DNA of 38,190 nt, from contig JAOAIA010000003.1 in NCBI GenBank assembly GCA_026414955.1, positions 1-38,190 on the forward strand, given 5' to 3'. The notes below the pieces were generated by a model. That model worked only from the letters and a program-made list of their open reading frames with translations, was not told where the DNA came from and made no database searches. This DNA comes from Candidatus Bipolaricaulota bacterium (GTDB lineage: Bacteria > Bipolaricaulota > Bipolaricaulia > RBG-16-55-9 > DRXL01). The stretch's first letter is position 1, and each line of letters starts with the position of its first letter. Of this stretch, positions 7,692 through 37,876 are shown piece after piece. The translations under genes were made by a program, and so were the position numbers.

Positions 7692-9944
7692 GTGGTGCGC
7701 AGAATTACAGTGTTCATCGGCGTATGGGTGGGGTTAGTGGTGGTTGGGGTTGTTCTCGGCATGGCCCAAGGGACGACCTACACGGTGCGCGAGGTCGTGA
7801 TCATGGGCAATAAAGCCCTGACCAAGCGCGAGATCTACGACGCGCTGCCGTTCAATATCGGCTCGCGCATCACCCTCGAAGATGTAGAAAAAGGCGCTGA
7901 AGCTGTGCGCGCCTTGGGCACCCTGGAGAAGGTCGAAGCCGACTATAGAATACTCCAGAACGGCATCCGCGTGATTTACCGTGTCGTTGAGCATCCGGTC
8001 GTCAAGAGGATCGAGTTCACCGGGACTGAGAACTATCAGTTCCATCTCATTGACATCTGGGGGATCAAGCTCTTCCCCTACAAGATGAAGCTGGCGCGTC
8101 GCGACGAACTCATTGATGCTCTGCGCGACGCCAAGGTCGAAGAGAACAAACCCCTCAACATGAGATGGTTCGATGACAAGATCATCGAGAACACGATCAC
8201 GCAGTTCTATCTGAAGAAGGGGTACACGTTCATCGGGGTTGATCCCGTCTTCAATCGCGAGAAGCAGACGCTCACGATTCAGATCGTCGAGGGCAAGCTC
8301 GACGCGGTAGAGATTCGCGGGTTGCAAGAGGTGCCGGAGTCACTCGTCAAGCCGTGGTTACAATTGCCCGTGGGCGAGCCGGTCAAGATCGCTCCCATCC
8401 AAGAGGCGATCAAAGCGATCAATCGCTCTATTTACTTCCAACAAGCCGACGAAAACACCATCCAGGTCGAACCGGGGAGCAAGCCCAATTCCGTCAAGAT
8501 CATTTGGAACCTCAAGGAACGCCGTCTCCTCGAGGCGCCCACGGAGATCCGCGCGATTCAACTCACCGGGGCCACGGTCTACCCCATCGCGCAGCTTCAG
8601 GCCCTCATCGGGAGGCTCCCCCACGGGCCGGTCACTAACTTCGCGCTGTTGACCGCGCTCAAGCGCGCCTATGACCTCTATCGTCTTGACGGGTATCTGT
8701 TGGTGAACTTCGTCACAGAGTCTCTGGGTGACGGCGTGCTGACCGTGCGCATTACCGAGGGGCGCATCACGAAGGTGGCGATCTCCAACGCCTGCAAGCC
8801 CGGCTTGAAGTCCGTGATCATCCCCAACGTGTTAGAGTTCCCCAGGCAGTGCACGTCGGAGCTGGTCATTCGGAAGGCCCTGCGCCTCAAAGAAGGGGAC
8901 CTCGTCAACGAGAATCCCTTGCGCGACAGCTTCAGAAATCTCTTGCAGTTGGGGTACTTCAAACAAGATGGCGTGAACATCCAACCGACAGTCGTGGATG
9001 AGTCCACCGGGGAAGTCGAGCTTGTGGTCAGCGTCGTCGAGGAGGATCAATTGGGGAACGTCAAGGGCGGTATCAGCTATAACCCCCAAGTGGGGATTGT
9101 CGGACAGATCAGCGTGGGCTGGAAGAACATCTTGGGCACAGCTCAAGACGTTGATCTCGCTGTTGATCGCGGCCTGGTCGGCAAAGAAGTGCTCAACTAT
9201 TCCTTCACCTACAAGACCAGCGGGTACTTCAGAGAGTATAATTCTGTCGAAGTCTCGCTGTTTAACAACACGCAGCAGCAGACCGATCCCCAGCCGCACG
9301 CCATGACCAAGGCTGGAGCGACATTCGCCCTCAGCTACCCCCTGATGTCCGATCTCACGCTGACGCTGCGCTTCCGCTACGAGGACGTGTGGAAGGCCGA
9401 GCCGATCAACGAGAAGAGCCTGATCATGTCGTTAGGAATTAATCTGGTGCGGGACACTCGCAATAATCCGCTCTTCCCCTCCTCCGGGGGCGAGTGGATT
9501 CTCATGGGGGAGCAAGCAGGCAGATTCGCGGTGGGCACGGAGTTCACCAAGCTTCAGGGGATCTGGACACACCACTGGCGGACGCTGGAGCGCCAAACGA
9601 TCTCCGTGCGGCTCTACGGAGCGTTCGGGCTGACGCTGCCCTTGCAGGAGCGCTTCGGCTTCGGCGGGGTGATGACCGTGCGCGGCTGGGGCACGTCGTT
9701 TACGGATCAGTTTGGGCTGGCCAATCTGGAATATCGTATGGAGTTGGCCGAGAACATCTGGGGCGTCTTCTATTATGATCTGGGATGGGCGGAGGGGGTG
9801 GGAATGCGACAGGCGCTTGGCTTTGAGATGCGCGTGGTGACGGGGTTCATCGGGAACGTGCGGCTTGTCTTAGCCTGGCCGTTCTTCGAGACGGGGCTCC
9901 AGATCGCGCCGGTCTTCCAGTTCGGCTTCGGAACGATGTTCTAA
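7692..9944 (+). CDS. bamA: Omp85/BamA-family outer-membrane assembly protein with about 5 POTRA domains
   Basis: Signal peptide; five POTRA-like repeats ending ...VVEHP/IVEG/LKER/ITEG/VVEE; barrel motifs WKNILGTAQ, RDTRNNPLFPSSG, loop-6 VRGW, C-terminal FQFGFGTMF; adjacent to skp and fabZ. Confidence 0.88.
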   Translation: MVRRITVFIGVWVGLVVVGVVLGMAQGTTYTVREVVIMGNKALTKREIYDALPFNIGSRITLEDVEKGAEAVRALGTLEKVEADYRILQNGIRVIYRVVEHPVVKRIEFTGTENYQFHLIDIWGIKLFPYKMKLARRDELIDALRDAKVEENKPLNMRWFDDKIIENTITQFYLKKGYTFIGVDPVFNREKQTLTIQIVEGKLDAVEIRGLQEVPESLVKPWLQLPVGEPVKIAPIQEAIKAINRSIYFQQADENTIQVEPGSKPNSVKIIWNLKERRLLEAPTEIRAIQLTGATVYPIAQLQALIGRLPHGPVTNFALLTALKRAYDLYRLDGYLLVNFVTESLGDGVLTVRITEGRITKVAISNACKPGLKSVIIPNVLEFPRQCTSELVIRKALRLKEGDLVNENPLRDSFRNLLQLGYFKQDGVNIQPTVVDESTGEVELVVSVVEEDQLGNVKGGISYNPQVGIVGQISVGWKNILGTAQDVDLAVDRGLVGKEVLNYSFTYKTSGYFREYNSVEVSLFNNTQQQTDPQPHAMTKAGATFALSYPLMSDLTLTLRFRYEDVWKAEPINEKSLIMSLGINLVRDTRNNPLFPSSGGEWILMGEQAGRFAVGTEFTKLQGIWTHHWRTLERQTISVRLYGAFGLTLPLQERFGFGGVMTVRGWGTSFTDQFGLANLEYRMELAENIWGVFYYDLGWAEGVGMRQALGFEMRVVTGFIGNVRLVLAWPFFETGLQIAPVFQFGFGTMF

Positions 9945-27061: not shown

Positions 27062-27865
27062 ATGCCTGAGCTTCCCGAGGTCGAGACGCTTCGTCGTGCG
27101 TTAGCACAAGAACTTGAAGGGTGCACGCTTACGGCTTTAAAAATCTATGAGCCGCGGCTGCTCCAGAACGCCTCGGAGCAAGAGCTACAACGAGCGCTCG
27201 TGGGGCGTCGTCTGCGCGCGGTGAGGCGTCGCGCGAAGTGCTTGCTCTTCGATTTCGGAGAGCATACAGTGATCTTGCATCTGCGCATGACGGGCTGGCC
27301 CACGCTCAGCCCGATAGAGAACCCGCGCTTTGTTTTCGCGTTCGCTGGGAATAAGACTCTCTATCTTCACGACACGCGCCGGCTGGCGACGTTGCATCTT
27401 GTGCCGAGCGCGCGAGCCGATAAGCTGCCTCCCTTAGCAGGGTTGGGGATTGAGCCGTTCCAGCCAAGCTATAAGTTTGAGGACTTCGTCACGCTCTTAC
27501 AGACTGACCAAGAGATCAAGAAACTCTTGCTCGACCAGCGGAAGATCGCCGGGATCGGGAACATCTATGCGTGCGAGGCGCTCTTCGCTAGCAAGATTCA
27601 TCCGCAACGTCCGGCGCGCACCCTGGCGCGCTCCGAGGCGCGACGGCTCTTCGTGCAGATCGAAGAGATTCTCTCTCGCGCGATTGCGGAGCAAGGGACC
27701 TCTGTGAGGACATACCGAGTGCTGACGGGCGAGTCTGGAAATTTTCAGAATTTTTTGCGCGTCTATGATCGCGAGGGCGAGCCGTGCCTGCGCTGTCGCA
27801 CGCCCATCGTGCGCATTACTCAAGGCGGGCGTGGGACGTATCTCTGCCCGAAATGCCAAGCTTGA
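27062..27865 (+). CDS. mutM: Formamidopyrimidine-DNA glycosylase
   Basis: MPELPEVE, HLRMTG, LLDQRKIAGIGNIYACEALF, C-terminal CxxC...CPKCQ zinc finger. Confidence 0.97.
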   Translation: MPELPEVETLRRALAQELEGCTLTALKIYEPRLLQNASEQELQRALVGRRLRAVRRRAKCLLFDFGEHTVILHLRMTGWPTLSPIENPRFVFAFAGNKTLYLHDTRRLATLHLVPSARADKLPPLAGLGIEPFQPSYKFEDFVTLLQTDQEIKKLLLDQRKIAGIGNIYACEALFASKIHPQRPARTLARSEARRLFVQIEEILSRAIAEQGTSVRTYRVLTGESGNFQNFLRVYDREGEPCLRCRTPIVRITQGGRGTYLCPKCQA

Positions 27866-27889
27866 CTTTCGGTACGAAGATGCTAAACT
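27862..27889 (+). promoter_or_regulatory. TA-operon promoter with palindromic putative operator
   Basis: TTGACT(27862)-16-TAAACT(27884) with TG extension; TTCG-GTA-CGAA palindrome in the spacer. Confidence 0.6.
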
Positions 27890-27918
27890 GTTATGACGCA
27901 TCTGAGAAGGAGATGTCT

Positions 27919-28176
27919 ATGCCAGTAGTGAAGATCAGCACAAACCGTCGCGTGACGATCCCTAAAGCGATTTGCGATGTGCTAGGGTTACGTGAAGGGC
28001 AGTTTGTCGAGGTCACGCGTAGAAACGGTGTTATCGTGATCAAGCCTACAGATATCGCTGAACCTGACGACATTCTCACCCCTGCCGATAAAGCCTCCCT
28101 GAGACGCGGCTTAGCTCAAGTCAAGCGCGGCGAAAGCATTCCCTGGGATGAAGTGAAAAAGCGATTGAAGCTCTAA
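27919..28176 (+). CDS. AbrB/MazE/SpoVT-fold antitoxin
   Basis: VKISTNRRVTIPKAICDVLGLREGQFVEV...IVIKP swapped-hairpin signature; RBS AAGGAG 6 nt before ATG 27919. Confidence 0.88.
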   Translation: MPVVKISTNRRVTIPKAICDVLGLREGQFVEVTRRNGVIVIKPTDIAEPDDILTPADKASLRRGLAQVKRGESIPWDEVKKRLKL

Positions 28177-28194
28177 CTTCTTCTTCCATTATGT

Positions 28195-28461
28195 ATGTCC
28201 TGGACTGTTGGGTTTACCCCGGAAGCGTATAAAGAATTCCAGCACTTCCCGCGCGATCAACAGCAGATGATCCAACGGGCTATTGACCGAATGCGTAACG
28301 ACCCTTTTCAAGGCAACGTGAGGCCTCTCAAAGGGAAGGAATGGAAGGGGCTATACCGTAAGGTCATCGGGCGGTATCGGCTCTTCTTTCTTCCGATCTT
28401 CAGCAGACGGCACGTCGAGATCATCACCATCCGCCCACGTACTGAGAAGACCTATCGGTGA
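28195..28461 (+). CDS. RelE/ParE-family toxin
   Basis: WTVGFTPEAYKEF...DPFQGNVRPLKG...YRKVIGRYRLFF...IRPRTEKTYR; 88 aa, basic, follows the antitoxin. Confidence 0.9.
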   Translation: MSWTVGFTPEAYKEFQHFPRDQQQMIQRAIDRMRNDPFQGNVRPLKGKEWKGLYRKVIGRYRLFFLPIFSRRHVEIITIRPRTEKTYR

Positions 28462-28471
28462 CAAGCTTGGC

Positions 28472-30631
28472 TCATGTTCCCTTCCTCGACTGCTGACCCT
28501 TCGGCCTCAAATCCACATAGAGAATATTTCCACATGCTGTCACGGCGTTGCTCGCGGGCACGTCATACTCCGCGAGAGTGCTGCCATCGGGGAGCGTCAC
28601 GCGGAGGCGCTGCGCTCCAGCACTGTTATTAGTGTAGACCAAGCAGCCATCAGTGCCGTGCTCGCTCCGCGCCCACGCCGACGGATTGGCAAACTCGAGC
28701 TTGCTGAAGAAGAGCGTGACCAACTCTCCCGTCGGGACACTCTCAGTGATCACAATCTCGACGGGCACGGTGAACGGGCTGTTCTGCGCGTTCTCAGCCG
28801 TGATCACAATCGCGCTCTCATGGGTCCCCGCAGCCAGCCCAGCGATATCGAGGCTGACTTGCACAAGTGCCCGCCCAACTCCTTGAATCGAGGAAAGCTT
28901 CACGAAATCCGACTGGGCTTGCGCCGTCCAGGCGAAATCTCCCTCCCCTACGTTCGTGATCTCCAGAAGCCGCGGAGCCGGAGCTGGGCCGTTCGCTTGT
29001 GCGACAAACTTGAGCTTCTCCGGGAAGGCCGCAATCGTCACTGCGGCGGGCTTCTCTTCTTTGAGCGGCTCACCTAACGCAATGCGCCCGGCCCCGTAGG
29101 TGTTATCCGGGCCGTCGTCGCCGCGATCTACGGCGCGCGAGGCGAGAAAGGCCGCGATCTCCTTGGGGCTCCAGTTGGGCCGAGCGCTCTTGACGAGCGC
29201 CGCAGTGCCAGCAAGGTGTGGGCTGGCTGCTGAGGTTCCAAAGAACGGCCGAAACGTCGAGGTGCGCACGCCGTCGGGGGCAGTGAAATCGGGCTTGATC
29301 CTCCCGTCTTTCGTCGGCCCGCGCGAGCTGTAGCGTCGCACGGAATCGCCGCGAAAATCTACGGCACCAACGCTGTAAGCACTGGGGGAGATCGCTGGCT
29401 CGAAGATCCCAATGCTCCCTGTGAAGACCATATACTCCGGTTCGACGTCTATGACCGAGACGTCGAGCTGTGCTGTGGGCCTGGTCGCGGTGCGCTGGCG
29501 AATCTTTAAGTGATATCTCCCGGAATCGCGTGCCGTGAAGAAGAGCAAGCGCGAAGGCCAGCCGGAACGCAGTTGGCCGCCGCTGGAGCGCCGACGATCG
29601 GCGTCATCGAAGAGCATGAGTTCATAATTCTCCGTAGCGCGCCCGCACTTGTCCTCCCAACTGAGCACCGCGATCACAGTCTCGTCGGCATCGACCTCGA
29701 AGGAAAGCCCTTCATCATCCCCTAAGAAGTTATGGAACCCATCTTTATCTGGGTCGTCGAAGATCCCCTCCCAATGCTCCGTGCCGTGATTCCCCACAGA
29801 GACGGCCCAGAAGATCCCAGCGTCGCGCGCTCGCTTGACAATAGGCTCAATAAGCCCCGTGCCCTCCCAGGGGCAGCCCGTCCCCAAGAAATTAAACGAC
29901 GTATTGATCACGTGCACGCCCTCGGAGATCAGAAAGTCTACGGCACGCCCGAGCTGGACATCGGTGTCAAAATTGACCAAATAGAACGTCGCTTCTGGGG
30001 CAAAATCGTAGACGATCTCCGCGACGGCAGTGCCGTGGCGCTCATCGGCTTCGATGTCCTCGTCACGGTTGAACGAGCGCACGATGACGCGCTCCGCTGG
30101 GGGCAGCTCACTCCCTAACAGCCTTTGGTAGCCCCTGAATCCTGCGTCTATGATGGCGACTTTCACCCCTTGGCCCTTGATCCCCGCCTCGTGCCAGAAG
30201 TTCGCCCCGATCACACGCACGCCCTCGCTAACGGTGTTGCCCTGCTCCCAGACGGGCACGAACGGCGTGCGCACCCAGGAGACAGCACTGAGCCCGGCAA
30301 GCGCAGTCACAGCTTGTATGGGCACAAATGCTTGGATAAGATTGTCATAGACAGCCTCGACGTGCCCGCCGAGCGCCGCCACGCGCGCTTGAATATCCTT
30401 TACTTCAGAGACTCTCGTCGCTTCGAGCACGATGCGCACTCTTCCAGCTTTGAGGTCTTCGGGCTTATTGGCGGGCAGCGAGGGAGGCTCTAAGCCCGAC
30501 TCGAACGCTATCAGGCTTTCGGCGAGTAAGTCTTGGATCTTCTGCGCACGCACGTCTTGGGCCTTTGGGCTTGTGGACACGACGACCGACACCGCGATGA
30601 GTAAGACTCCGAGGACAAGTAGCTTTCTCAT
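28472..30631 (-). CDS. Secreted S8 (subtilisin-like) serine protease with propeptide and BACON-like domain
   Basis: Signal peptide; triad AIIDAG, HGTAVAE, GTSAASPH; oxyanion SVGN; YSSRGPTKDGRIKPD; C-terminal ITNVGEGDFAWTA BACON-like module. ATG 30631 preferred from RBS spacing. Confidence 0.93.
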   Translation of the reverse strand: MRKLLVLGVLLIAVSVVVSTSPKAQDVRAQKIQDLLAESLIAFESGLEPPSLPANKPEDLKAGRVRIVLEATRVSEVKDIQARVAALGGHVEAVYDNLIQAFVPIQAVTALAGLSAVSWVRTPFVPVWEQGNTVSEGVRVIGANFWHEAGIKGQGVKVAIIDAGFRGYQRLLGSELPPAERVIVRSFNRDEDIEADERHGTAVAEIVYDFAPEATFYLVNFDTDVQLGRAVDFLISEGVHVINTSFNFLGTGCPWEGTGLIEPIVKRARDAGIFWAVSVGNHGTEHWEGIFDDPDKDGFHNFLGDDEGLSFEVDADETVIAVLSWEDKCGRATENYELMLFDDADRRRSSGGQLRSGWPSRLLFFTARDSGRYHLKIRQRTATRPTAQLDVSVIDVEPEYMVFTGSIGIFEPAISPSAYSVGAVDFRGDSVRRYSSRGPTKDGRIKPDFTAPDGVRTSTFRPFFGTSAASPHLAGTAALVKSARPNWSPKEIAAFLASRAVDRGDDGPDNTYGAGRIALGEPLKEEKPAAVTIAAFPEKLKFVAQANGPAPAPRLLEITNVGEGDFAWTAQAQSDFVKLSSIQGVGRALVQVSLDIAGLAAGTHESAIVITAENAQNSPFTVPVEIVITESVPTGELVTLFFSKLEFANPSAWARSEHGTDGCLVYTNNSAGAQRLRVTLPDGSTLAEYDVPASNAVTACGNILYVDLRPKGQQSRKGT

Positions 30632-30666
30632 GCTCTTCAACCCCTTCTCAGTAAAAATTCTCCGCT

Positions 30667-30697
30667 ATTATACCAAATTGCTGGGGCGCTCTGACAA
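30667..30697 (-). promoter_or_regulatory. Extended -10 promoter for the S8 protease
   Basis: TG-G-TATAAT (30675-30667); TTGTCA 19 nt upstream of the -10 hexamer. Confidence 0.55.
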
Positions 30698-30760
30698 TAG
30701 TGCCTGAAAAATAGAGAAAGCGTGCTGAAGCACGCTGGACAGCCGGCTTGTGCTTCCCAG

Positions 30761-31204
30761 TTATCTATCGGGCCTGGGTCGCACCGGCAGCCGAATAAAC
30801 TCAATATGCGGATGCTTCGCCAGCTTAAGCAGCGCCTTGAGGGGGACGAGCGCCTGGAGCTGATTCTCGTAGTCCGTCTCTACGGTGCCGTCGAGCGCTT
30901 CAACGGCCCAACGCAACTCCTCTAATGCTTCAACGTGAGTCGCTTCGATCACGACGACGACCTTGCCGTCCTTGAAGTCTTGCTCAAAACCGTGCTCCTT
31001 CGCGAACGCTGCGGGATCGGCAGCAGAGACGAGAGAGACGAGGTGCTCTTGGAGCTTGGGGTAGTCATCAGGGTTGAGGGTCACAGGTGGCTCCGGTTTG
31101 GTATATGTCGGTGGTGAACTGGGTTGCGTCGAGATATACCAGAATGCTCCGACAATCAACACGAGCACGACCAACGCTGTGAAAAACCCCAGCGTCTTCT
31201 GCAT
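30761..31204 (-). CDS. Membrane-anchored stand-alone subtilase-propeptide-like protein (147 aa)
   Basis: N-terminal TM, Pro-rich linker, then a domain that aligns by eye with the adjacent S8 prodomain; RBS AAAGGAG. Confidence 0.85.
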   Translation of the reverse strand: MQKTLGFFTALVVLVLIVGAFWYISTQPSSPPTYTKPEPPVTLNPDDYPKLQEHLVSLVSAADPAAFAKEHGFEQDFKDGKVVVVIEATHVEALEELRWAVEALDGTVETDYENQLQALVPLKALLKLAKHPHIEFIRLPVRPRPDR

Positions 31205-31224
31205 GGTGACTCCTTTCTGAGCTG

Positions 31225-31254
31225 CCCCCTTCCCAACGCAGGGCAGGGGTTAGG
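31225..31254. repeat. Short G/C palindrome overlapping the nfeD stop
   Basis: CCCCCTTCCC-AACGCA-GGGCAGGGG-TTAGG imperfect inverted repeat. Confidence 0.45.
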
Positions 31255-32563
31255 TCCTTCGCACGATGAGCTTGCCGTTCTCAATGCGCTCGACGCGCAC
31301 AGACTCGCCGGGCTTGATCGGCTTGTCTACCGCTACTGCGAGCCAATACTCCCCCTGGACGAAGACCATCCCCGTTGGGTTCAGCTCGTCGCGTGCTGTG
31401 CCCACCGCGCCGATCATCCCCTCTTTCCCCGTCGCAATGGGCTTGCGCTGAATGAGCAAGCCCTTCGTGACCATAAATACGAAGAGTGCCGTGATCGTCC
31501 CTACGGTCACAAAGATATTAATGGGAGAGATGCTGAGCGCGGGGGCCTCGAAGCTCTCGATATCAAACAGCATAAACGACCCGATCAAGAGCGAGATCAC
31601 CCCGCCAATCGTGAGTGCTAAGTGTGTCGAGGCAAAGATATCAATCACCATCAAGGTTGCTCCCAGGAGGATGAACGCTAGCCCCGCAACGTTGAGCGGC
31701 AAGACCTGCAAGCCCAGCAGGGCTAGCAGCAGACAGATCGCACCGCCAATGCCGACGCCAAAGCCGGGGGTGAAGAACTCCGCAATGAGCGCGTAAATCC
31801 CGATGGTCAAGAGCAAGTAGACGACGTTGGGATCGGCTAAGTAACTCATGACTTGCTCTTTGAAGTTACGCTCGTAAGTTGTGAGGGGCACCCCAGACGT
31901 TCGCAAGCGGATCGTCTGGCCGTCGCGCTGCAACTCATAGCCATCAAGACGAGCCAGCAGCTCCTCACGGCTGTTGGCGATCAGATTGATGATATTATTC
32001 TCTAAGGCTTCGCGAGCTGTGAGCGACTTGCCCTCGAACACGAACTTTTCCGCCCACTCTTTGGAGCGCCCGCGCTTCTCGGCGATCTTGCGCGCTTCGG
32101 AAGCGACGAACTCCACGATCTTCTTGCGGGCGGAGTCGTCTTCATCAGGCTGCTGGCCCTCGCTGGGGGCCAGCGAGACGGGAGTCGAAGAGCCGATATT
32201 GGTGCCCTCGGCCATCGCAGCGATATCCGCGGCCATCGTGATAAACGCGCCCGCAGATGCTGCGCGTGCTCCCCCCGGCCCCACCCAGACTACTATCGGG
32301 ATGGGGGAGTTCAAGATCGCGCTGACCATGTCTTTGGTAGATTCTAAAAGCCCGCCGGGGGTGTCCAAGCGAATGATCAAGAGCGAAGCAGCGTCGCGGT
32401 GCGCTTCGCTGATGACGCGCAGCAGAAAGTCTTTGGTGATGGGATTGATCGAGCTAGCAAGTTCGGTATAGGCGATCAATGGAGCAGTAGCTTGAGGCTG
32501 GCCCACTGTGAGAGCCGCTCCCAAGCCGAGCGAGAAGATCGCAATTGTCCATCGGTGGCGCAT
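31250..32563 (-). CDS. nfeD: NfeD-family membrane-bound serine protease (long form, ClpP-like domain)
   Basis: LDTPGG, GARAASAG (catalytic Ser), GTNIGS, TM bundle, C-terminal OB-fold (TGKEGMIG...GMVFVQGEYWLA). Confidence 0.93.
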   Translation of the reverse strand: MRHRWTIAIFSLGLGAALTVGQPQATAPLIAYTELASSINPITKDFLLRVISEAHRDAASLLIIRLDTPGGLLESTKDMVSAILNSPIPIVVWVGPGGARAASAGAFITMAADIAAMAEGTNIGSSTPVSLAPSEGQQPDEDDSARKKIVEFVASEARKIAEKRGRSKEWAEKFVFEGKSLTAREALENNIINLIANSREELLARLDGYELQRDGQTIRLRTSGVPLTTYERNFKEQVMSYLADPNVVYLLLTIGIYALIAEFFTPGFGVGIGGAICLLLALLGLQVLPLNVAGLAFILLGATLMVIDIFASTHLALTIGGVISLLIGSFMLFDIESFEAPALSISPINIFVTVGTITALFVFMVTKGLLIQRKPIATGKEGMIGAVGTARDELNPTGMVFVQGEYWLAVAVDKPIKPGESVRVERIENGKLIVRRT

Positions 32564-32567
32564 AGAC

Positions 32568-32926
32568 TGGTGGAGGTGGCGGGAATCGAACCCGCGTCCG
32601 GAGATGCTTTCGTTTGGCTTCTACAGGCTTAGTCCGGTGTTTTCGTTTAAGATCGGCCGCTCCCACCGAACAGGATCGTCCGATCCGAGCCCCATTTGAA
32701 GATTCCCACGCGCCCCGGAGCCGCGCGCGCGGTCAGCCCGTCTCGTCGGTCCCTCATGCGAGCCGACGGGCTAAGCCCTCATGAGAGATGCCTCTCTCTA
32801 GTTCAGAGAGGCAGTGGCGTAAGCAAAAGAGTTGGCACTTCTGGTGCCTTCGACCGTTTTTGGGAGGTGGCCGCAACTCCGCCTGCGACCGCCCTGCCGC
32901 ATCCCCGTCGAATCCAGTGCACCCCC
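32568..32926 (-). ncRNA. ssrA: tmRNA
   Basis: 5' GGGGGUGCACUGGAUUCGAC; 3' GACGCGGGUUCGAUUCCCGCCACCUCCACCA; acceptor stem with G3.U alanine identity pair; 359 nt; internal tag ORF at 32836-32798. Confidence 0.97.
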
Positions 32927-32959: not shown

Positions 32960-32987
32960 ATTATAGCAAAGAGTCGTGAGGTTTCAA
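32960..32987 (-). promoter_or_regulatory. ssrA promoter
   Basis: TTGAAA(32987-32982)-16-TATAAT(32965-32960) with TG extension. Confidence 0.75.
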
Positions 32988-33189: not shown

Positions 33190-34281
33190 CTACAGCTCTT
33201 CCTCCAGTTGTTTCAGCAACTCCTGCGCCCGGCGCGATAAGCCCTTGGGGACTTGAACTTTCACCGTAACGTATTGGTCGCCCTTGCCCCAGCCCTGCAA
33301 GTGCGGAATCCCCTTCCCAGAGAGCTTAAATCGCTCTCCCGCTTGCGTCCCCGCTGGGATCGTCAGCTCTTCTTCGCCGTAGAGCGTGGGAACTTTGACG
33401 CGCGCCCCAAGAGCAGCTTGCGTGAACTTAATCGGCAGCTCAACGTAAATATCGTCGCCCTGGCGCTGAAAGATCGGATGCGGACGTACTTCGACGGTGA
33501 TATAGAGATCACCCGGCGACCCCCCTTCCAGTCCGGCATTGCCCTCGCCTGCTAGGCGCAACCGAGACCCCGTATCTACCCCCGGCGGAATCTTCACCGA
33601 TAATTGGCTCTCCGTCTTCACTCGCCCAGAGCCGTGACACCGCCGACATGGGTGCTCTATGATCTCGCCCGTGCCGCCGCAGCGCCCGCACGTGCGAATG
33701 TTCACAAAGCTCCCCAAGAGCGTCTGCTGACGGTATTGAATCTCCCCGCGCCCACGACAATCCGGGCAGACCGTGCGCTGCGTCCCCGGCTCAACCCCCG
33801 TCCCCCTGCAGACGTCACAGACAGTGTATCTGGGCACGGTGAGCTTCATCTGGGCTCCAAACGCTGCGTCTTCGAGATTAATTCTCAAACGATACTCCAA
33901 GTCTTCGCCGCGTTGGGCGCGGCTGCGCCGCCGGTCGCGCGTGGTGCGTGTGCGCAGCCCCTCGCCAAAGAACATATCGAAAATATCTTCCCACGCCGAG
34001 CCGAACCCGAACTCCTCAAACGCCTCGCGTGCCCGACGGAAATCGCGCAGATCAAAGTCGAAGCGTTGCTCCGGCCCGACATGCCCGAAGCGATCATACT
34101 GGGCGCGCTTGTCGGGATCGCTCAGGACTTCATAGGCTTCGGCAGCTTCTTTGAACTTTTCTGGGTCGCCGCCCTTGTCAGGATGATATTTCTTTGCAAG
34201 CTGCCGAAACGCTTTCTTGATCTCGTCTTGTGAGGCATCCCGCGAGACGCCTAAGATCTCGTAGTAGTCCTTCCTAGCCAT
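33190..34281 (-). CDS. dnaJ: Chaperone DnaJ
   Basis: J-domain DYYEILGV...HPD, four CxxCxGxG repeats, C-terminal domain. Confidence 0.98.
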
Positions 34282-34297
34282 GAGAGCTCCCCATTGG

Positions 34298-34360
34298 AAT
34301 CACGGAGCACACGGACAGAGCCACGGATTACACGGAGACGATCACTTCCGTGCCGTGATT
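34298..34360. repeat. CACGGA-repeat palindromic element between dnaK and dnaJ
   Basis: CACGGA at 34301, 34310, 34322, 34331; inverted TCCGTG/CCGTG at 34347 and 34353; terminal inverted repeat AATCACGG/CCGTGATT. Confidence 0.7.
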
Positions 34361-36213
34361 CAATCGTCCTTCTTCTCGTACTCGGCGTCAATGTACTTTT
34401 CGCCCTTTCCGTCTGAAGATTGCTGCTCCGAGCTTGGCCCGCCGGCAGCCTGAGCACTACTTGCTTGATAGATCTCGCGCCCAAGCTCTAAGCTGACTTC
34501 TTCAAGCTCTTTCATCGCTTGACGGACCTCAGCGATTGGGGCTGGGCTCTTGAGTTTCTCTCGCAGAGCGTCAGCAGCTCGCTGGATGCGGTCGCGCGTC
34601 GCGGCGCTCACTTTGCTCCCGTGCTCTTTGAGAGCTTTTTCAGCCGCGTAGACCATCTGGTCGGCGCGGTTGCGCGTCTCAACTTCCTCGGCGCGACGGC
34701 GATCCTCTTCTTCGTAGCGCTTGGCGTCCTCTTGCATGCGCTTGATCTCTTCGTCGCTCAGGCGCGACTGCTCTTTAATGACTATACTGGCAGACTTCCC
34801 CGTCGCTTTGTCTTTGGCCGTGACGTGGAGAATGCCGTCCACGTCAATGCTGAACGTCACGTCGATCTGCGGGACGCCGCGCGGCGCCGGCGGAATCCCC
34901 GTGAGCTGGAAGCGCCCCAGAGATTTGTTGTCTGCAGCGAACTTGCGCTCCCCTTGCGTGATGTGAATGTCTACGGTCGTCTGGCCGTCCTCAGCCGTCG
35001 TAAACGTCTTGGTGCGCTCGACGGGGATGGTCGTGTTGCGCTCGATAATCGGGGTCGCGATCCCGCCCAGCGTTTCGATAGAGAGCGTCAGCGGGGTCAC
35101 GTCGAGCAAGACGATCTGGTCCACTTCACCGGCGAGCACACCGCCTTGGATCGCTGCTCCCATCGCCACGACCTCGTCGGGGTTGATCTCTTTGTTGAGC
35201 TTGGCCGAGCCGAACATCTCCGCGACGCGCTCTTGGACTCTGGGCATTCGGGTGCTGCCGCCGACTAAGACGACTTGCTGAATCTGTTTGGGCGAGAGCT
35301 TGGCGTCGCTGAGCGCCTGCTCCACGATTCTCATAGTTCTGTCTACCAAGTCGTCGGTGAGGGCTTGGAACTTCGCACGGGTGAGCTTGCGCTCCAAGTG
35401 CTTCGGCCCACGAGCATCCGCAGCGATATACGGCAGATTGATGATCGTCTCGGTCTTGAACGAGAGTTCTTTCTTGGCGGCTTCAGCCGCGTCCTTGAGG
35501 CGCTGCAGCGCCGACAAGTCTTTCGAGAGATCAATCCCCGTCTCGGCTTTGAACTCCGCGATCAGCCAGTCAATGATGCGCTGATCGAAATCTTTGCCGC
35601 CGAGATAGGTGTCTCCCGAGGTAGACTTCACTTCGAAGACGCCGTCGCCGATATCTAAGATCGTGACATCGAACGTTCCGCCGCCCAAGTCATAGACTAA
35701 AATCGTCTCGTCCTTCTCTTTGTCGAGGCCGTAGGCGAGCGACGCTGCCGTCGGCTCGTTGATAATGCGCTCGACTTCCAGCCCGGCGATCTTGCCCGCG
35801 TCTTTGGTCGCTTGGCGCTGCTGCTGATTGAAATACGCCGGCACCGTAATAACAGCTTTAGTGATCTTGAAGCCAAGCTTCTCTTCGGCGTCCTTCTTCA
35901 GTTTCTGGAGGATCATCGCCGAGATCTCTTCGGGGGAATACTCTCTGGTCGTCCCGCCGGCCGTGATCTTGACGCGATAGTCCGTGCCCATCTTGCGCTT
36001 GATCTCTTGCACGGTGCGCTCAGGGTTGGTGATCGCCTGGCGCTTGGCGAGCGTCCCGATCAAGCGTTCCCCGGTCTCGGTGAACGCCACGACCGAGGGC
36101 GTGATGCGCTCCCCTTCGGCGTTGGTGATGATCTCCGGCTTGCCGCCTTCGACGAGTGCTATCGCAGATTTTGTGGTTCCCAAGTCAATACCCACGATTC
36201 TCTCTTTGGCCAT
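34360..36213 (-). CDS. dnaK: Chaperone DnaK (Hsp70)
   Basis: [49 protein letters not shown]. Confidence 0.99.
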
Positions 36214-36246
36214 AGCAACCTCCTTTGAAGATTCTGCTTGCTTGCC

Positions 36247-36303
36247 CCCTCACCTCTTGTTGCTCCCCTCTCCCTCGGAGGGGGGAGGGGACGGGGGCGA
36301 GGG
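36247..36303 (-). repeat. REP-like palindromic element, copy 2 (inside the grpE 3' end)
   Basis: Reverse complement CCCTCGCCCCCGTCCCCTCCCCCCTCCGAGGGAGAGGGGAGCAACAAGAGGTGAGGG aligns with 26982-27036. Confidence 0.85.
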
Positions 36304-36816
36304 TGAATATCTGCTGACTTTGACCTTGCTGGGGCGCAGCACGCGGCCCGCGCGCTGATATCCCCGCTCGAATTCCTCCAAGACTTTGCCGCCAGCTTCG
36401 GTCGTTTCTACCGTGATCAACGCCTCATGAAGTGCGGGATCGAACGTCTCGCCCAGGGCTACGATGGGCTGGACGCCCTTGCTCGCCAAGAACGTATGAA
36501 ACTGGGCGAAGATGCGCTCGACTCCCTCAATAAAAGAGTCTTTATCGTTGTTCTTGTTAAACGTGCGGAACGCGCGCTCGAAGTTATCATAGATGGGCAA
36601 AATCTCTAACAACAGCGCGTCCTCGAGCCGTCGAAAGAGTTCTTCGTTCTCGCGGGCGATGCGCTTCTTGTAGTTCTCAAAATCCGCGTGAACCCGCTGG
36701 AGTCTCTCGACAAGCTCTTTGTTGTGGCGCTCTTTGGCTTCGAGCGCCGCTTTGAGTGCAGCAAGTTCTTGATTTGTCTCTTGGGTTTGAGTCTGCTCCG
36801 TGTTGGTCTCGTCCAT
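36250..36816 (-). CDS. grpE: Nucleotide exchange factor GrpE
   Basis: ADFENYKKR, LPIYDNFERA, FDPALHEA, GYQRAGRVLRPSKVKV; ATG 36816 with RBS GAGGTG. Confidence 0.97.
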   Translation of the reverse strand: MDETNTEQTQTQETNQELAALKAALEAKERHNKELVERLQRVHADFENYKKRIARENEELFRRLEDALLLEILPIYDNFERAFRTFNKNNDKDSFIEGVERIFAQFHTFLASKGVQPIVALGETFDPALHEALITVETTEAGGKVLEEFERGYQRAGRVLRPSKVKVSRYSPSPPSPPPSEGEGSNKR

Positions 36817-36821
36817 AGTGA

Positions 36822-37850
36822 TCACCTCTGAGCCGTCGCTCGTGAGACGGTCAGGATGGCGCGCAGGCGATTCCCGATATATTGCGTGGTCGAGACGGCC
36901 TTGCTGTAGTCCATGCGCACTGGGCCTAAGACCCCCAGGACGCCATCGTAGCCGTAGTGGAGGCTGATCAAGCTATAGGGGCGCAGCTCGCGCACTGTGT
37001 GCTCTTCGCCGATCACGGTGGTCAACTGGCCGGAGGCGGGCCGCCCTTGGTGGATCGCTTGGATAAATCTATGCTCGTCCTCCAGGAGCATCAGGAGCTT
37101 GCGCGCCTCCTCGATGGCCTCATCCCACGTAAAGACGGTCTTGAGCAGGTGGAGCAGCCCTTCGGTGTAGAGCTGCTGTGTGCTCACGTGGGGAGGGAGC
37201 AACTGTTGCAGCATGAGGCAGGCGTCTTGGGTGACGGGGTCGGCCCAGCCCTCAGGGGAGCTGGCCTGAAGCTGCTCGCAGATAAGCCCCAACCGCTGGC
37301 CGCGAAGAGTGCGATTGAGCAAATTGGCGATCTTGTCGAGCTGTTCTTGGGGGAGCGTCGTGGGGATGACGCGCGACTCGACGATCCCTAAATTCGAGAT
37401 GATGACAGCGAGGGCGTGATCTGAAGCCAATTTCACGAGAGTGATCGACTCGAACTCGGTCTGGTCGAGCCGCGGCGCGAGCACGAACCCCAGATGGCCC
37501 GTCAGGCTCGCCAGTAAGAACGCCGTCTGCTTCAGAAGCTCGTCCAATCGCTGTCTTTGGAAGCCGTAGGCCTCCAAGATCGCGTGCTGTTCTTTGCGGG
37601 CCAGCTCGCTCAGCTCCAGGAGCCAGTCCACGAAGAAGCGATAGCCCTTGGCCGTGGGGATGCGCCCCGAAGAACTCCACGCTTTTGTAATATAGCCGTG
37701 CTTTTCGAGATATTTCATCTCATTGCGAATCGTGGCGGAGCTGACCGACAGCCCGTATTTCTCTAAGATCGTTTGGGAGCTGACGGCCTTGCCCGTACGG
37801 ATATAGTGATCCACGATTTCTTTGAGAATCAATCGCTTCCGCGCGTCCAT
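36822..37850 (-). CDS. hrcA: Heat-inducible transcription repressor HrcA
   Basis: ILKEIVDHYI, VSSATIRNEM, SSGRIPTAKGYRFFVD, GVLGPVRMDY. Confidence 0.97.
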   Translation of the reverse strand: MDARKRLILKEIVDHYIRTGKAVSSQTILEKYGLSVSSATIRNEMKYLEKHGYITKAWSSSGRIPTAKGYRFFVDWLLELSELARKEQHAILEAYGFQRQRLDELLKQTAFLLASLTGHLGFVLAPRLDQTEFESITLVKLASDHALAVIISNLGIVESRVIPTTLPQEQLDKIANLLNRTLRGQRLGLICEQLQASSPEGWADPVTQDACLMLQQLLPPHVSTQQLYTEGLLHLLKTVFTWDEAIEEARKLLMLLEDEHRFIQAIHQGRPASGQLTTVIGEEHTVRELRPYSLISLHYGYDGVLGVLGPVRMDYSKAVSTTQYIGNRLRAILTVSRATAQR

Positions 37851-37876
37851 TAGCAATCACCTTGTGAGTCTGCTAA
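37850..37876. promoter_or_regulatory. CIRCE operator
   Basis: TTAGCAGAC-N9-GATTGCTAA on the minus strand versus consensus TTAGCACTC-N9-GAGTGCTAA, directly before hrcA. Confidence 0.92.

Follow-up and report, generated by a model that had tools for sequence, protein, structure and literature searches.

Organization of the locus

We examined a 38,190-nucleotide stretch of a Candidatus Bipolaricaulota genome (assembly GCA_026414955.1, contig JAOAIA010000003.1), hereafter called the window. Its minus strand carries, in this order, a transfer-messenger RNA (tmRNA) gene, an NfeD1b-type gene, a 147-aa open reading frame (ORF) and the gene of an S8 subtilase. The 147-aa product, called the small protein below, is a free-standing homologue of the subtilase prodomain and a candidate inhibitor of subtilases. 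A first-pass annotation had described it as a membrane-anchored copy of the neighboring protease's own propeptide, and as a possible dedicated inhibitor or chaperone. The features of the locus are as follows.

30761..31204, minus strand: small gene, 147-aa free-standing prodomain homologue, from ORF translation; ATG start, stop codon at 30761-30763.
31210..31216, minus strand: Shine-Dalgarno-like AAAGGAG, 5 nt ahead of the small-gene ATG, from sequence reading.
31130..31195, minus strand: residues 4-25, N-terminal hydrophobic helix, predicted by AlphaFold2 (AF2) as helix 4-25.
31073..31129, minus strand: residues 26-44, Pro/Ser/Thr-rich linker of variable length; 8 Pro within residues 26-49.
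30974..31072, minus strand: residues 45-77, predicted N-terminal helical extension of the prodomain fold, with a D-Y-P-K-L motif and two helices (AF2 helices 53-60 and 64-70).
30791..30973, minus strand: prodomain-like core of the small protein; AF2 predicted local distance difference test (pLDDT) 96-99; matches the propeptides of subtilisin E and BPN', POIA1, and the PCSK9 and Tk-SP prodomains.
30764..30790, minus strand: residues 139-147, C-terminal tail L-P-V-R-P-R-P-D-R; predicted interface, P140 column conserved.
30719..30736, minus strand: terminator-like hairpin and T-run directly 3' of the small gene, in the window only.
30667..30697, minus strand: S8 promoter-like element, TTGTCA, 19 nt, TGGTATAAT (extended -10), with a conserved TGnTATAAT in the spacer between the genes.
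28472..30631 (ATG, 719 aa) or 28472..30640 (TTG, 722 aa), minus strand: S8 subtilase gene, Pfam Peptidase_S8, E 4.9e-26.
Parts of the S8 gene, minus strand: signal peptide, prodomain (about 30254-30526), catalytic domain (about 29051-30250), C-terminal region.
31250..32563, minus strand: NfeD1b-type membrane protease gene, Pfam NfeD_membrane, NfeD1b_N and NfeD.

The gap between the NfeD stop codon and the small gene is 45 nt, and that between the stop codon of the small ORF and the S8 gene is 120 to 129 nt, depending on the S8 start. ATG 30631 is more probably that start than TTG 30640; it is the start on record and aligns with the ATG of the orthologues. Catalytic residues were numbered from this ATG (3 must be added for the TTG start). 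An alignment of 46 homologues shows no variation at Asp162, His199, Asn281 and Ser467 of the subtilase, whose catalytic domain has Tk-SP (3afg; E 8.8e-15) as its best sequence match in the Protein Data Bank (PDB). The small protein has no covalent link to that domain: its ORF ends with a stop codon after residue 147, and the S8 gene begins with a start codon and a signal peptide sequence of its own. The strong ribosome-binding site (AAAGGAG, 5 nt 5' of the ATG), the N-terminal hydrophobic segment (20 consecutive apolar residues at positions 5-24, modeled as helix 4-25) and the Pro-rich linker (8 Pro in 24 residues) of the earlier description were all found again.

Homology of the small protein to the prodomain of the neighboring subtilase

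BLASTP analyses aligned residues 51-143 of the small protein with residues 39-129 of the 722-aa S8 protein (57 bits, E 1e-14, 32/93 identical), that is, with the region between the signal peptide and the catalytic domain. The sole gap, of two residues, precedes residue 78 of the small protein. The gapless alignment of its last ~66 residues with the S8 prodomain, as initially reported, thus corresponds to residues 78-143 against S8 residues 64-129, with 26/66 identities. A profile built from free-standing relatives also matched the prodomain of the neighboring S8 protein (E 2.4e-17).

The small protein stops close to the end of the prodomain, as had been noticed, namely, 4 residues past an R-x-P-x-x-P motif common to both proteins. 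The chain ends 2 to 5 residues past the same column in 69 of 101 free-standing relatives, and the P140 column is Pro in 96 of them. We considered the Pro at the P1-equivalent position as a sign of an uncleavable tail, but it is not discriminating because covalent prodomains, too, have Pro there more often than any other residue (17/46). A tblastn search with the S8 protein found no degenerate catalytic sequence 3' of the small-gene stop codon.

Conservation and spread of the small gene

A search for homologues of similar length in 5.8 billion proteins gave 45 matches at E ≤1e-3 among 173 candidates. All 45 were short, with 107 to 155 aa and 53 to 100% identity, and none was a full-length protease; all those bearing a name were labeled Bipolaricaulota or Acetothermia. 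An exhaustive search of 1.84 billion representatives returned 215 proteins at E ≤1e-3. Every one of the 17 best representatives (E ≤1e-10) had 63 to 160 aa. Among the best 150 of the 215, 94 were short (≤210 aa) with the match ending ≤15 residues from the C terminus, 32 were proteases of ≥500 aa with the domain near the N terminus, and 24 were intermediate.

We then determined ratios of nonsynonymous to synonymous substitution rates (dN/dS) for 14 orthologous loci (88 usable pairs out of 91). The median was 0.115 overall, 0.080 for the domain, 0.21 for the hydrophobic helix and 0.30 for the linker, the highest value of the small protein; the ratios are rough because dS is approximately 1.4, near saturation. 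The gene is therefore under purifying selection. It is real, conserved and maintained rather than debris, in agreement with the first-pass annotation.

No Pfam family covers these proteins; among 101 members, two weakly match CspB_prodomain and two match NapD. A locus search with one protein found a single record, from the same GTDB order as the window. Organism names for 2 of the 20 family clusters looked up were Fraserbacteria and Chloroflexota, and the ESM Atlas gave, as leads only, small hypothetical proteins, commonest in Acidobacteriota (score 0.91). A distant free-standing member of 143 aa was found on a metagenome contig (L052, 3543-3974, plus strand), next to genes for a CTP-dependent riboflavin kinase, a cytidylyltransferase-like protein and a TP_methylase-family protein; its downstream neighbor is out of sight because the contig ends right after the gene. 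CTP-dependent riboflavin kinase is typical of archaea, which hints at an archaeal host for this contig. Together with the Chloroflexota-labeled member, the riboflavin kinase contig hints at a wider range of the family.

Origin of the small gene and other subtilases of the genome

We built a FastTree phylogeny of 213 domain sequences, 101 of them free-standing and 112 covalent prodomains (107 columns, sequences >70% identical thinned). The small protein of the window falls inside a clade of 70 free-standing rows that contains no prodomain row (support 97), and the prodomain of its neighbor falls inside a clade of 49 prodomain rows. The tree needs 17 changes of state, compared with 70.7 when the labels are shuffled. 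These 17 changes indicate that there are further free-standing clusters elsewhere in the tree, or that the tree is poorly resolved.

Constrained topologies were then compared with IQ-TREE on a set of 56 rows, using the approximately unbiased (AU) test. When all 23 free-standing rows were constrained to form one group, the likelihood exceeded that of the unconstrained search (p-AU 0.81). Grouping the small proteins of the genus with the prodomains of their neighbors was 95 log-likelihood units worse (p-AU 9e-43). The alignment is short, the groups were picked after the first tree, and the neighbor-copy hypothesis was the first-pass annotation's own. A recent copy of the neighbor's own prodomain was thus rejected, and the description of the protein as a copy of the neighbor's propeptide fails in any recent sense. 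As judged from these sequences, the small protein is an old free-standing relative of the prodomain, within a clade made of free-standing proteins only.

The genome (1.35 Mb, 72% complete) has nine S8 loci, on contigs C153, C134, C117, C97, C94, C124, C78, C101 and C95. Among the seven loci compared, the free-standing profile detected a related prodomain in five (C101, C78, C94, C124 and C97; E 2.4e-17 to 1.1e-5), hence in at least five of the nine, and no clear one in C153 or C117. As a single free-standing copy was found in the genome, it may serve several S8 paralogues.

Predicted fold and complex with the S8 catalytic domain

The AF2 model obtained with the 101 diverse free-standing relatives had a pLDDT of 91.9 and a predicted template modeling score of 0.72, and it superseded a poor model (pLDDT 62) built from close orthologues alone. 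It predicts helix 4-25, the low-complexity linker, which is the part of lowest confidence (pLDDT 74-78), helices 53-60 and 64-70, and then a strand-helix-strand-strand-helix-strand arrangement. We compared the model with approximately 48,000 PDB representatives. The best match was the N-terminal propeptide (ProN) of Tk-SP (3afg_B; Z 10.3, root mean square deviation [rmsd] 3.2, 84 aligned residues, 20% identity). This match takes in the core as well as the N-terminal helical extension (together model residues 44-142), with the extension aligned to ProN from residue 12 onward. The PCSK9 prodomain (Z 7.6), a chain of the PAM protease (7.5) and the BPN' prosegment (7.5) followed, and the free-standing inhibitor POIA1 (1v5i_B) was matched with Z 7.2 (rmsd 2.1, 67 aligned residues); since unrelated ferredoxin-like domains score between Z 5 and 7, only the ProN match stands clear. 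The top Foldseek rows were the propeptides of CspB, subtilisin E and BPN', with a probability of 1.00 but an E value of just 0.02. In these models, then, the domain of the small protein has an alpha/beta subtilase-propeptide fold.

We also modeled a complex between S8 residues 128-527 (46-row alignment) and residues 44-147 of the small protein (101-row alignment). The complex score was 0.89 (runs at 0.90, 0.89 and 0.88), compared with 0.01 for the best of three controls. Of 80 solved complexes, 58 attain the score mark, as do 2 of 110 mismatched pairs; these counts hold only roughly here because we made the alignments ourselves. The runs agreed in at least 94% of the contacts, and the partner pLDDT was at least 89.

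On the S8 side, the predicted interface comprises Asp162, His199, Asn281, Gly465-Ser467 and the strand segments 222-229 and 244-251. That of the small protein consists of residues 138-147, the sheet (83, 85, 109-117) and the N-terminal extension (49-54, 70-72). In the model the extension touches the catalytic domain away from the cleft, at an insert (residues 349-366 and 394), and the C-terminal tail lies in the substrate cleft over the catalytic Asp, His, Asn and Ser, which is the predicted inhibitory pose and the one that the first-pass annotation had named as supportive.

Gene neighborhood across the phylum

Matches to the domain were present in 40 of 151 genomes of the phylum. By family they were found in 15/15 (f1), 9/9 (f2), 2/4 (f3), 1/1 (f4), 3/3 (f5), 2/43 (f6) and 7/55 (f7) genomes, and in 0/20 of the rest. 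Of the 108 matches, 33 are in short frames (≤200 aa), 68 in long ones (≥350 aa) and 7 in frames of intermediate length. One of the 33 short frames is a truncated S8 gene, and the remaining 32 are free-standing copies.

We found 25 of these 32 copies beside a same-strand S8 gene, 20 upstream and 5 downstream of it. The distance to a same-strand prodomain match in a long frame located downstream was 63 to 374 nt for 19 copies, and the copy of genome G146 has an S8 gene just downstream by tblastn. The five copies in the other orientation are immediately downstream of S8 genes of approximately 900 to 965 aa. Three copies lie at contig ends; for one of these genomes, G012, the likely partner S8 gene ends another contig. 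Thus, the expectation of co-occurrence was borne out: throughout one order of the phylum, the small gene and S8 genes are neighbors. Three genomes (G062, G050 and G104) have two or more free-standing copies.

The truncated gene is a 199-aa frame (L043, G128:C33, 1296-1825) made of the prodomain followed by approximately 100 residues of the S8 catalytic domain.

Export and anchoring

A hydrophobic stretch followed by a lipobox-like [GAS]C was found in 64 of the 101 free-standing relatives. In 31 the stretch is present without [GAS]C, 10 of these forming the window's own clade, and the 6 others have short or cut N termini. An export signal or anchor is therefore present, as read from the sequences, in most of the family. 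The proteins of the window's clade start with M-Q-K followed by 20 apolar residues, with A20, W22, Y23 and I24 invariant among 17 orthologues. The small protein of the window has no Cys after the hydrophobic region and hence no lipobox, and its N-terminal helix is quite likely an uncleaved signal-anchor.

We considered that the clade might have swapped the lipobox for a transmembrane (TM) helix through loss of lipoprotein maturation. This was rejected because Lgt is present in 33 and LspA in 34 of the 35 genomes of the order, the genus included. Omp85 was found in 18 of 18 genomes of the family, and the window has an Omp85 gene of its own.

7692-9944, plus strand: Omp85/BamA-family gene, 750 aa.

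The presence of Omp85 indicates an outer membrane, and thus the domain of the small protein would face the periplasm.

Proposed function of the small protein

We propose that the small protein faces the periplasm and, tethered there, acts as an inhibitor or latency partner of the neighboring subtilase and perhaps of its paralogues, a reading that we consider somewhat more likely than not. After Sec export, the N-terminal hydrophobic helix would probably stay in the inner membrane, and the prodomain-like domain would be kept in the periplasm by the flexible Pro-rich linker. Subtilase that is mature, or that has become active too early, would be bound there in the manner of a cleaved propeptide, with the beta-sheet of the small protein packing on the two helices at the surface of the catalytic domain and the C-terminal tail entering the substrate cleft over the catalytic Ser. 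The outcome would be either to block activity beside the cell's own envelope or to hold a pool of latent enzyme. The sequences and models establish the prodomain homology, the predicted fold, the conservation, the linkage of the genes and an export signal or anchor in most relatives, from which binding, inhibition, topology and the role in the cell are inferred. As the S8 protein keeps its own prodomain, a foldase acting in trans is not obviously needed. Propeptides of hyperthermophilic subtilases are presented in PMC10580911 as mainly tight, selective inhibitors that are dispensable for folding, which together with the retained prodomain favors inhibition over folding. The protease/anti-protease module put forward in the first-pass annotation thus stands as regards the fold, the complex model, the selection and the co-occurrence, but the partner is not the enzyme's own copy in a recent sense, and its dedication to this enzyme is not supported: at least five of the nine S8 loci have a related prodomain, the S8 gene has a promoter-like element of its own, and three copies in relatives have no S8 gene nearby.

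Several observations weigh against the proposal. Pfam PF05922 (Inhibitor_I9) does not match the window protein at E ≤1 or the 101 relatives at E ≤0.01, and the family profile matched nothing below E 0.4 among the PDB sequences; the small protein is outside Pfam I9 by sequence. Propeptide-subtilisin complexes have already been solved, and the performance of the complex model may therefore reflect likeness to them rather than binding by this particular copy. The V-G-A at positions 18-20, with its invariant A20, is a possible signal-peptidase site that would yield a soluble periplasmic protein. Gene linkage is not absolute: in G029, which belongs to the window's genus, the small gene and the S8 gene are 4.7 kb apart, and 3 of the 32 free-standing copies (G037:C9, G055:C166 and G050:C119) have no S8 gene within approximately 3.5 kb or more.

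Transcription signals count in the same direction. A TGnTATAAT motif stands in the spacer approximately 35 to 45 nt before the S8 ATG in 10 of the 14 loci. Two further loci have just TATAAT, and the motif is missing from the remaining two, namely, G029, whose S8 gene is displaced, and one at a contig end. Our consensus promoter scan did not report the S8 element because its spacer is 19 nt. The S8 gene probably has its own promoter, as read from these motifs. With this element and the hairpin of the window, the two genes are not clearly one transcript, although folding of the 75 nt that follow the stop codon revealed no evident hairpin of this kind in 13 other loci. On the same kind of evidence, the small gene may share a transcript with the NfeD gene.

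The small protein might instead catalyze the folding of an exported subtilase in trans at the membrane, acting on this S8 protein or on paralogues whose prodomain is weak or absent. Its layout of putative TM anchor, linker and domain resembles that of the lipase foldase Lif, and among the nine S8 loci C153 and C117 have no clear prodomain of this type. Subtilase propeptides are described as folding catalysts as well as inhibitors (PMC10580911, PMC6993865). Nevertheless, the neighboring S8 protein and at least four paralogues (C78, C94, C97 and C124) keep a homologous prodomain, and the tail on the catalytic residues in the complex model is an inhibitory pose. The closest structure is the Tk-SP propeptide, and propeptides of hyperthermophilic subtilases are those reported in PMC10580911 as non-essential for folding. 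We therefore regard a folding role as unlikely.

It is likewise improbable that the protein is in essence a docking site that retains the unanchored subtilase, or its zymogen, at the membrane and thereby keeps proteolysis with the cell, with the activity unaffected or restored on release. Such a role would fit a subtilase that has a signal peptide and, by eye, no noticeable membrane anchor, the recurrence of a lipid or TM tether in the family, and the predicted contacts of the N-terminal extension outside the cleft. The predicted pose fills the active site, and so docking and inhibition would coincide. In addition, the signals of some relatives look cleavable by eye without having a lipobox, which speaks against anchoring as the essential feature.

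The upstream gene suggests another possibility, namely, that the small protein is a partner or substrate of the NfeD membrane protease and that adjacency to the S8 gene is secondary. The 45-nt gap supports this idea, as does the NfeD gene adjoining the small gene in all 13 loci of genera g1 and g2 (L005-L017). The small gene also occupies the slot in which NfeD genes usually have an SPFH partner, and the SPFH genes of this genome are on other contigs. Yet the NfeD gene was found within the 1.5-kb flanks of none of six more distant loci outside the window's family (L018-L023), five of which have an adjoining S8 gene, and the domain is homologous to S8 prodomains, not to SPFH proteins. This makes a primary link to NfeD very unlikely. 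That the gene is a gene-calling artifact, or the decaying remnant left by duplication of a protease gene, deserves almost no credit: such remnants do occur, as in G128:C33, but here the 45 homologues and the 17 best representatives are all short, dN/dS is approximately 0.1, the gene has its own ribosome-binding site and export signal, its product groups with other free-standing proteins in a 70-row clade, and no remnant of a catalytic domain was found after its stop codon.

Comparison with known systems

The free-standing propeptide-like subtilase inhibitors that PMC6993865 describes as characterized come from eukaryotes only, namely, fungi, plants and apicomplexans; they include Pleurotus POIA1, yeast PBI2, Arabidopsis SPI-1, Toxoplasma MIC5 and Plasmodium SUB1-ProM, and are treated there as MEROPS I9 inhibitors and mimics. 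Like the window protein, these I9-type inhibitors are products of small separate genes with a propeptide fold, and SUB1-ProM is encoded beside subtilase genes according to the same source (PMC6993865). The POIA1 fold matches our model, and the tail-in-cleft pose is predicted for the window protein as well. In contrast to the five eukaryotic proteins, the window protein is prokaryotic, appears from its sequence to have a membrane anchor and linker, and has no PF05922 match. It also differs in being clearly homologous in sequence to the prodomain of the neighbor's subfamily, and its inhibitory activity is a prediction of the model. Unlike ProN of Tk-SP of Thermococcus kodakarensis (3afg), which is covalent in the zymogen and removed on maturation, it is encoded by a gene of its own and has a separate signal or anchor.

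Lif, a helper encoded beside a secreted hydrolase, comprises an N-terminal membrane anchor and a linker; likewise, the 'external chaperone' ORF2 of Aeromonas ASP is separately encoded. Neither helper is a homologue of subtilase propeptides, and the enzymes that they serve have no prodomain. The S8 protein of the window, in contrast, keeps a homologous prodomain. Compared with Lif, the window protein has a 20-residue apolar stretch (helix 4-25) and a Pro-rich linker, and cleavage after A20 is possible.

Spi of Streptococcus pyogenes is not known to be membrane-anchored. It is a propeptide analogue encoded beside speB, and the Bfi proteins of Bacteroides fragilis are small, mostly lipoprotein inhibitor candidates encoded ≤35 bp from protease genes, as reported in PMC2873492. 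Protection of the cell from its own protease is put forward for both, as we propose for the window protein; their targets are C10 cysteine proteases, not S8 enzymes, and Bfi is staphostatin-like, not propeptide-like (PMC2873492).

The potempins PotA to PotE of Tannerella forsythia are membrane-anchored proteins of 98 to 132 residues encoded immediately upstream of the secreted peptidases that they specifically inhibit, and PotC inhibits the S8 subtilase mirolase, as described in PMC9890683. Most relatives of the window protein likewise have a lipobox-like signal (64/101), whereas the window protein itself has a probable TM helix. Potempins are beta-barrels (OB-fold or eight-stranded) that have no relationship to prodomains and reach into the cleft with loops, whereas the window protein has an alpha/beta fold; it is thus not a potempin by fold. 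The account in PMC9890683 also has potempins co-transcribed with their peptidases, whereas the S8 gene of the window has its own promoter-like element even though the small gene is adjacent, upstream and on the same strand.

By analogy, the window protein may be a prokaryotic counterpart of the eukaryotic free-standing propeptide-like inhibitors, with a genetic logic like that of the potempins, Spi and Bfi. The literature that we searched yielded no description of a prokaryotic free-standing propeptide-like inhibitor of S8 enzymes. Such a counterpart would be no oddity, as 94 of the best 150 matches are short with the domain at the end, and most of those aligned have an export or lipoprotein signal. 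If inhibitory, the family would be a new one for MEROPS and would explain how the envelope is protected in organisms with many secreted subtilases, such as this one with its nine S8 loci. It would also offer ready-made, specific and probably heat-stable inhibitors for thermostable industrial subtilases.

A broader and doubtful speculation is that these proteins are envelope-tethered 'permanent prodomains' that set where and when secreted subtilases act, and that they form a large prokaryotic family without annotation, present in bacteria and probably also in archaea. In the window's lineage the tether would serve as a regulated latch: the NfeD protease, with its predicted extracytoplasmic ClpP-like domain, would cut the Pro-rich linker, and the inhibitor would be released or destroyed and the protease pool switched on.

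Other features of the window and of related loci

The tmRNA gene is full length (172 bits; 32568-32926, minus strand), with the listed start codon of NfeD 5 nt downstream of it; translation of NfeD may actually begin further inside the ORF. A strong promoter-like site for the tmRNA is found at 32960-32987 on the minus strand (TTGAAA, 16 nt, TATAAT with TG; 11/12 matches). Further upstream (33190-37856, minus strand), inspection of the translations by eye showed a DnaJ-like ORF (33190-34281) and a DnaK-like ORF (34360-36213), followed by two ORFs in grpE and hrcA positions. By this resemblance, the protease locus sits just downstream of a heat shock chaperone cluster.

In G029, the segment between the small gene and the S8 gene (L033, G029:C11, 3130-7809) encodes, on the opposite strand, a Crp-type regulator, an ABC ATPase, an ABC-2 permease and two ORFs without a Pfam family. 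Just downstream of the S8 gene of the window, two adjacent small ORFs (27784-28461, plus strand) resemble by eye an AbrB/SpoVT-type antitoxin and a RelE/ParE-type toxin. The sole sequencing run that contains this DNA carries the label hot springs metagenome.

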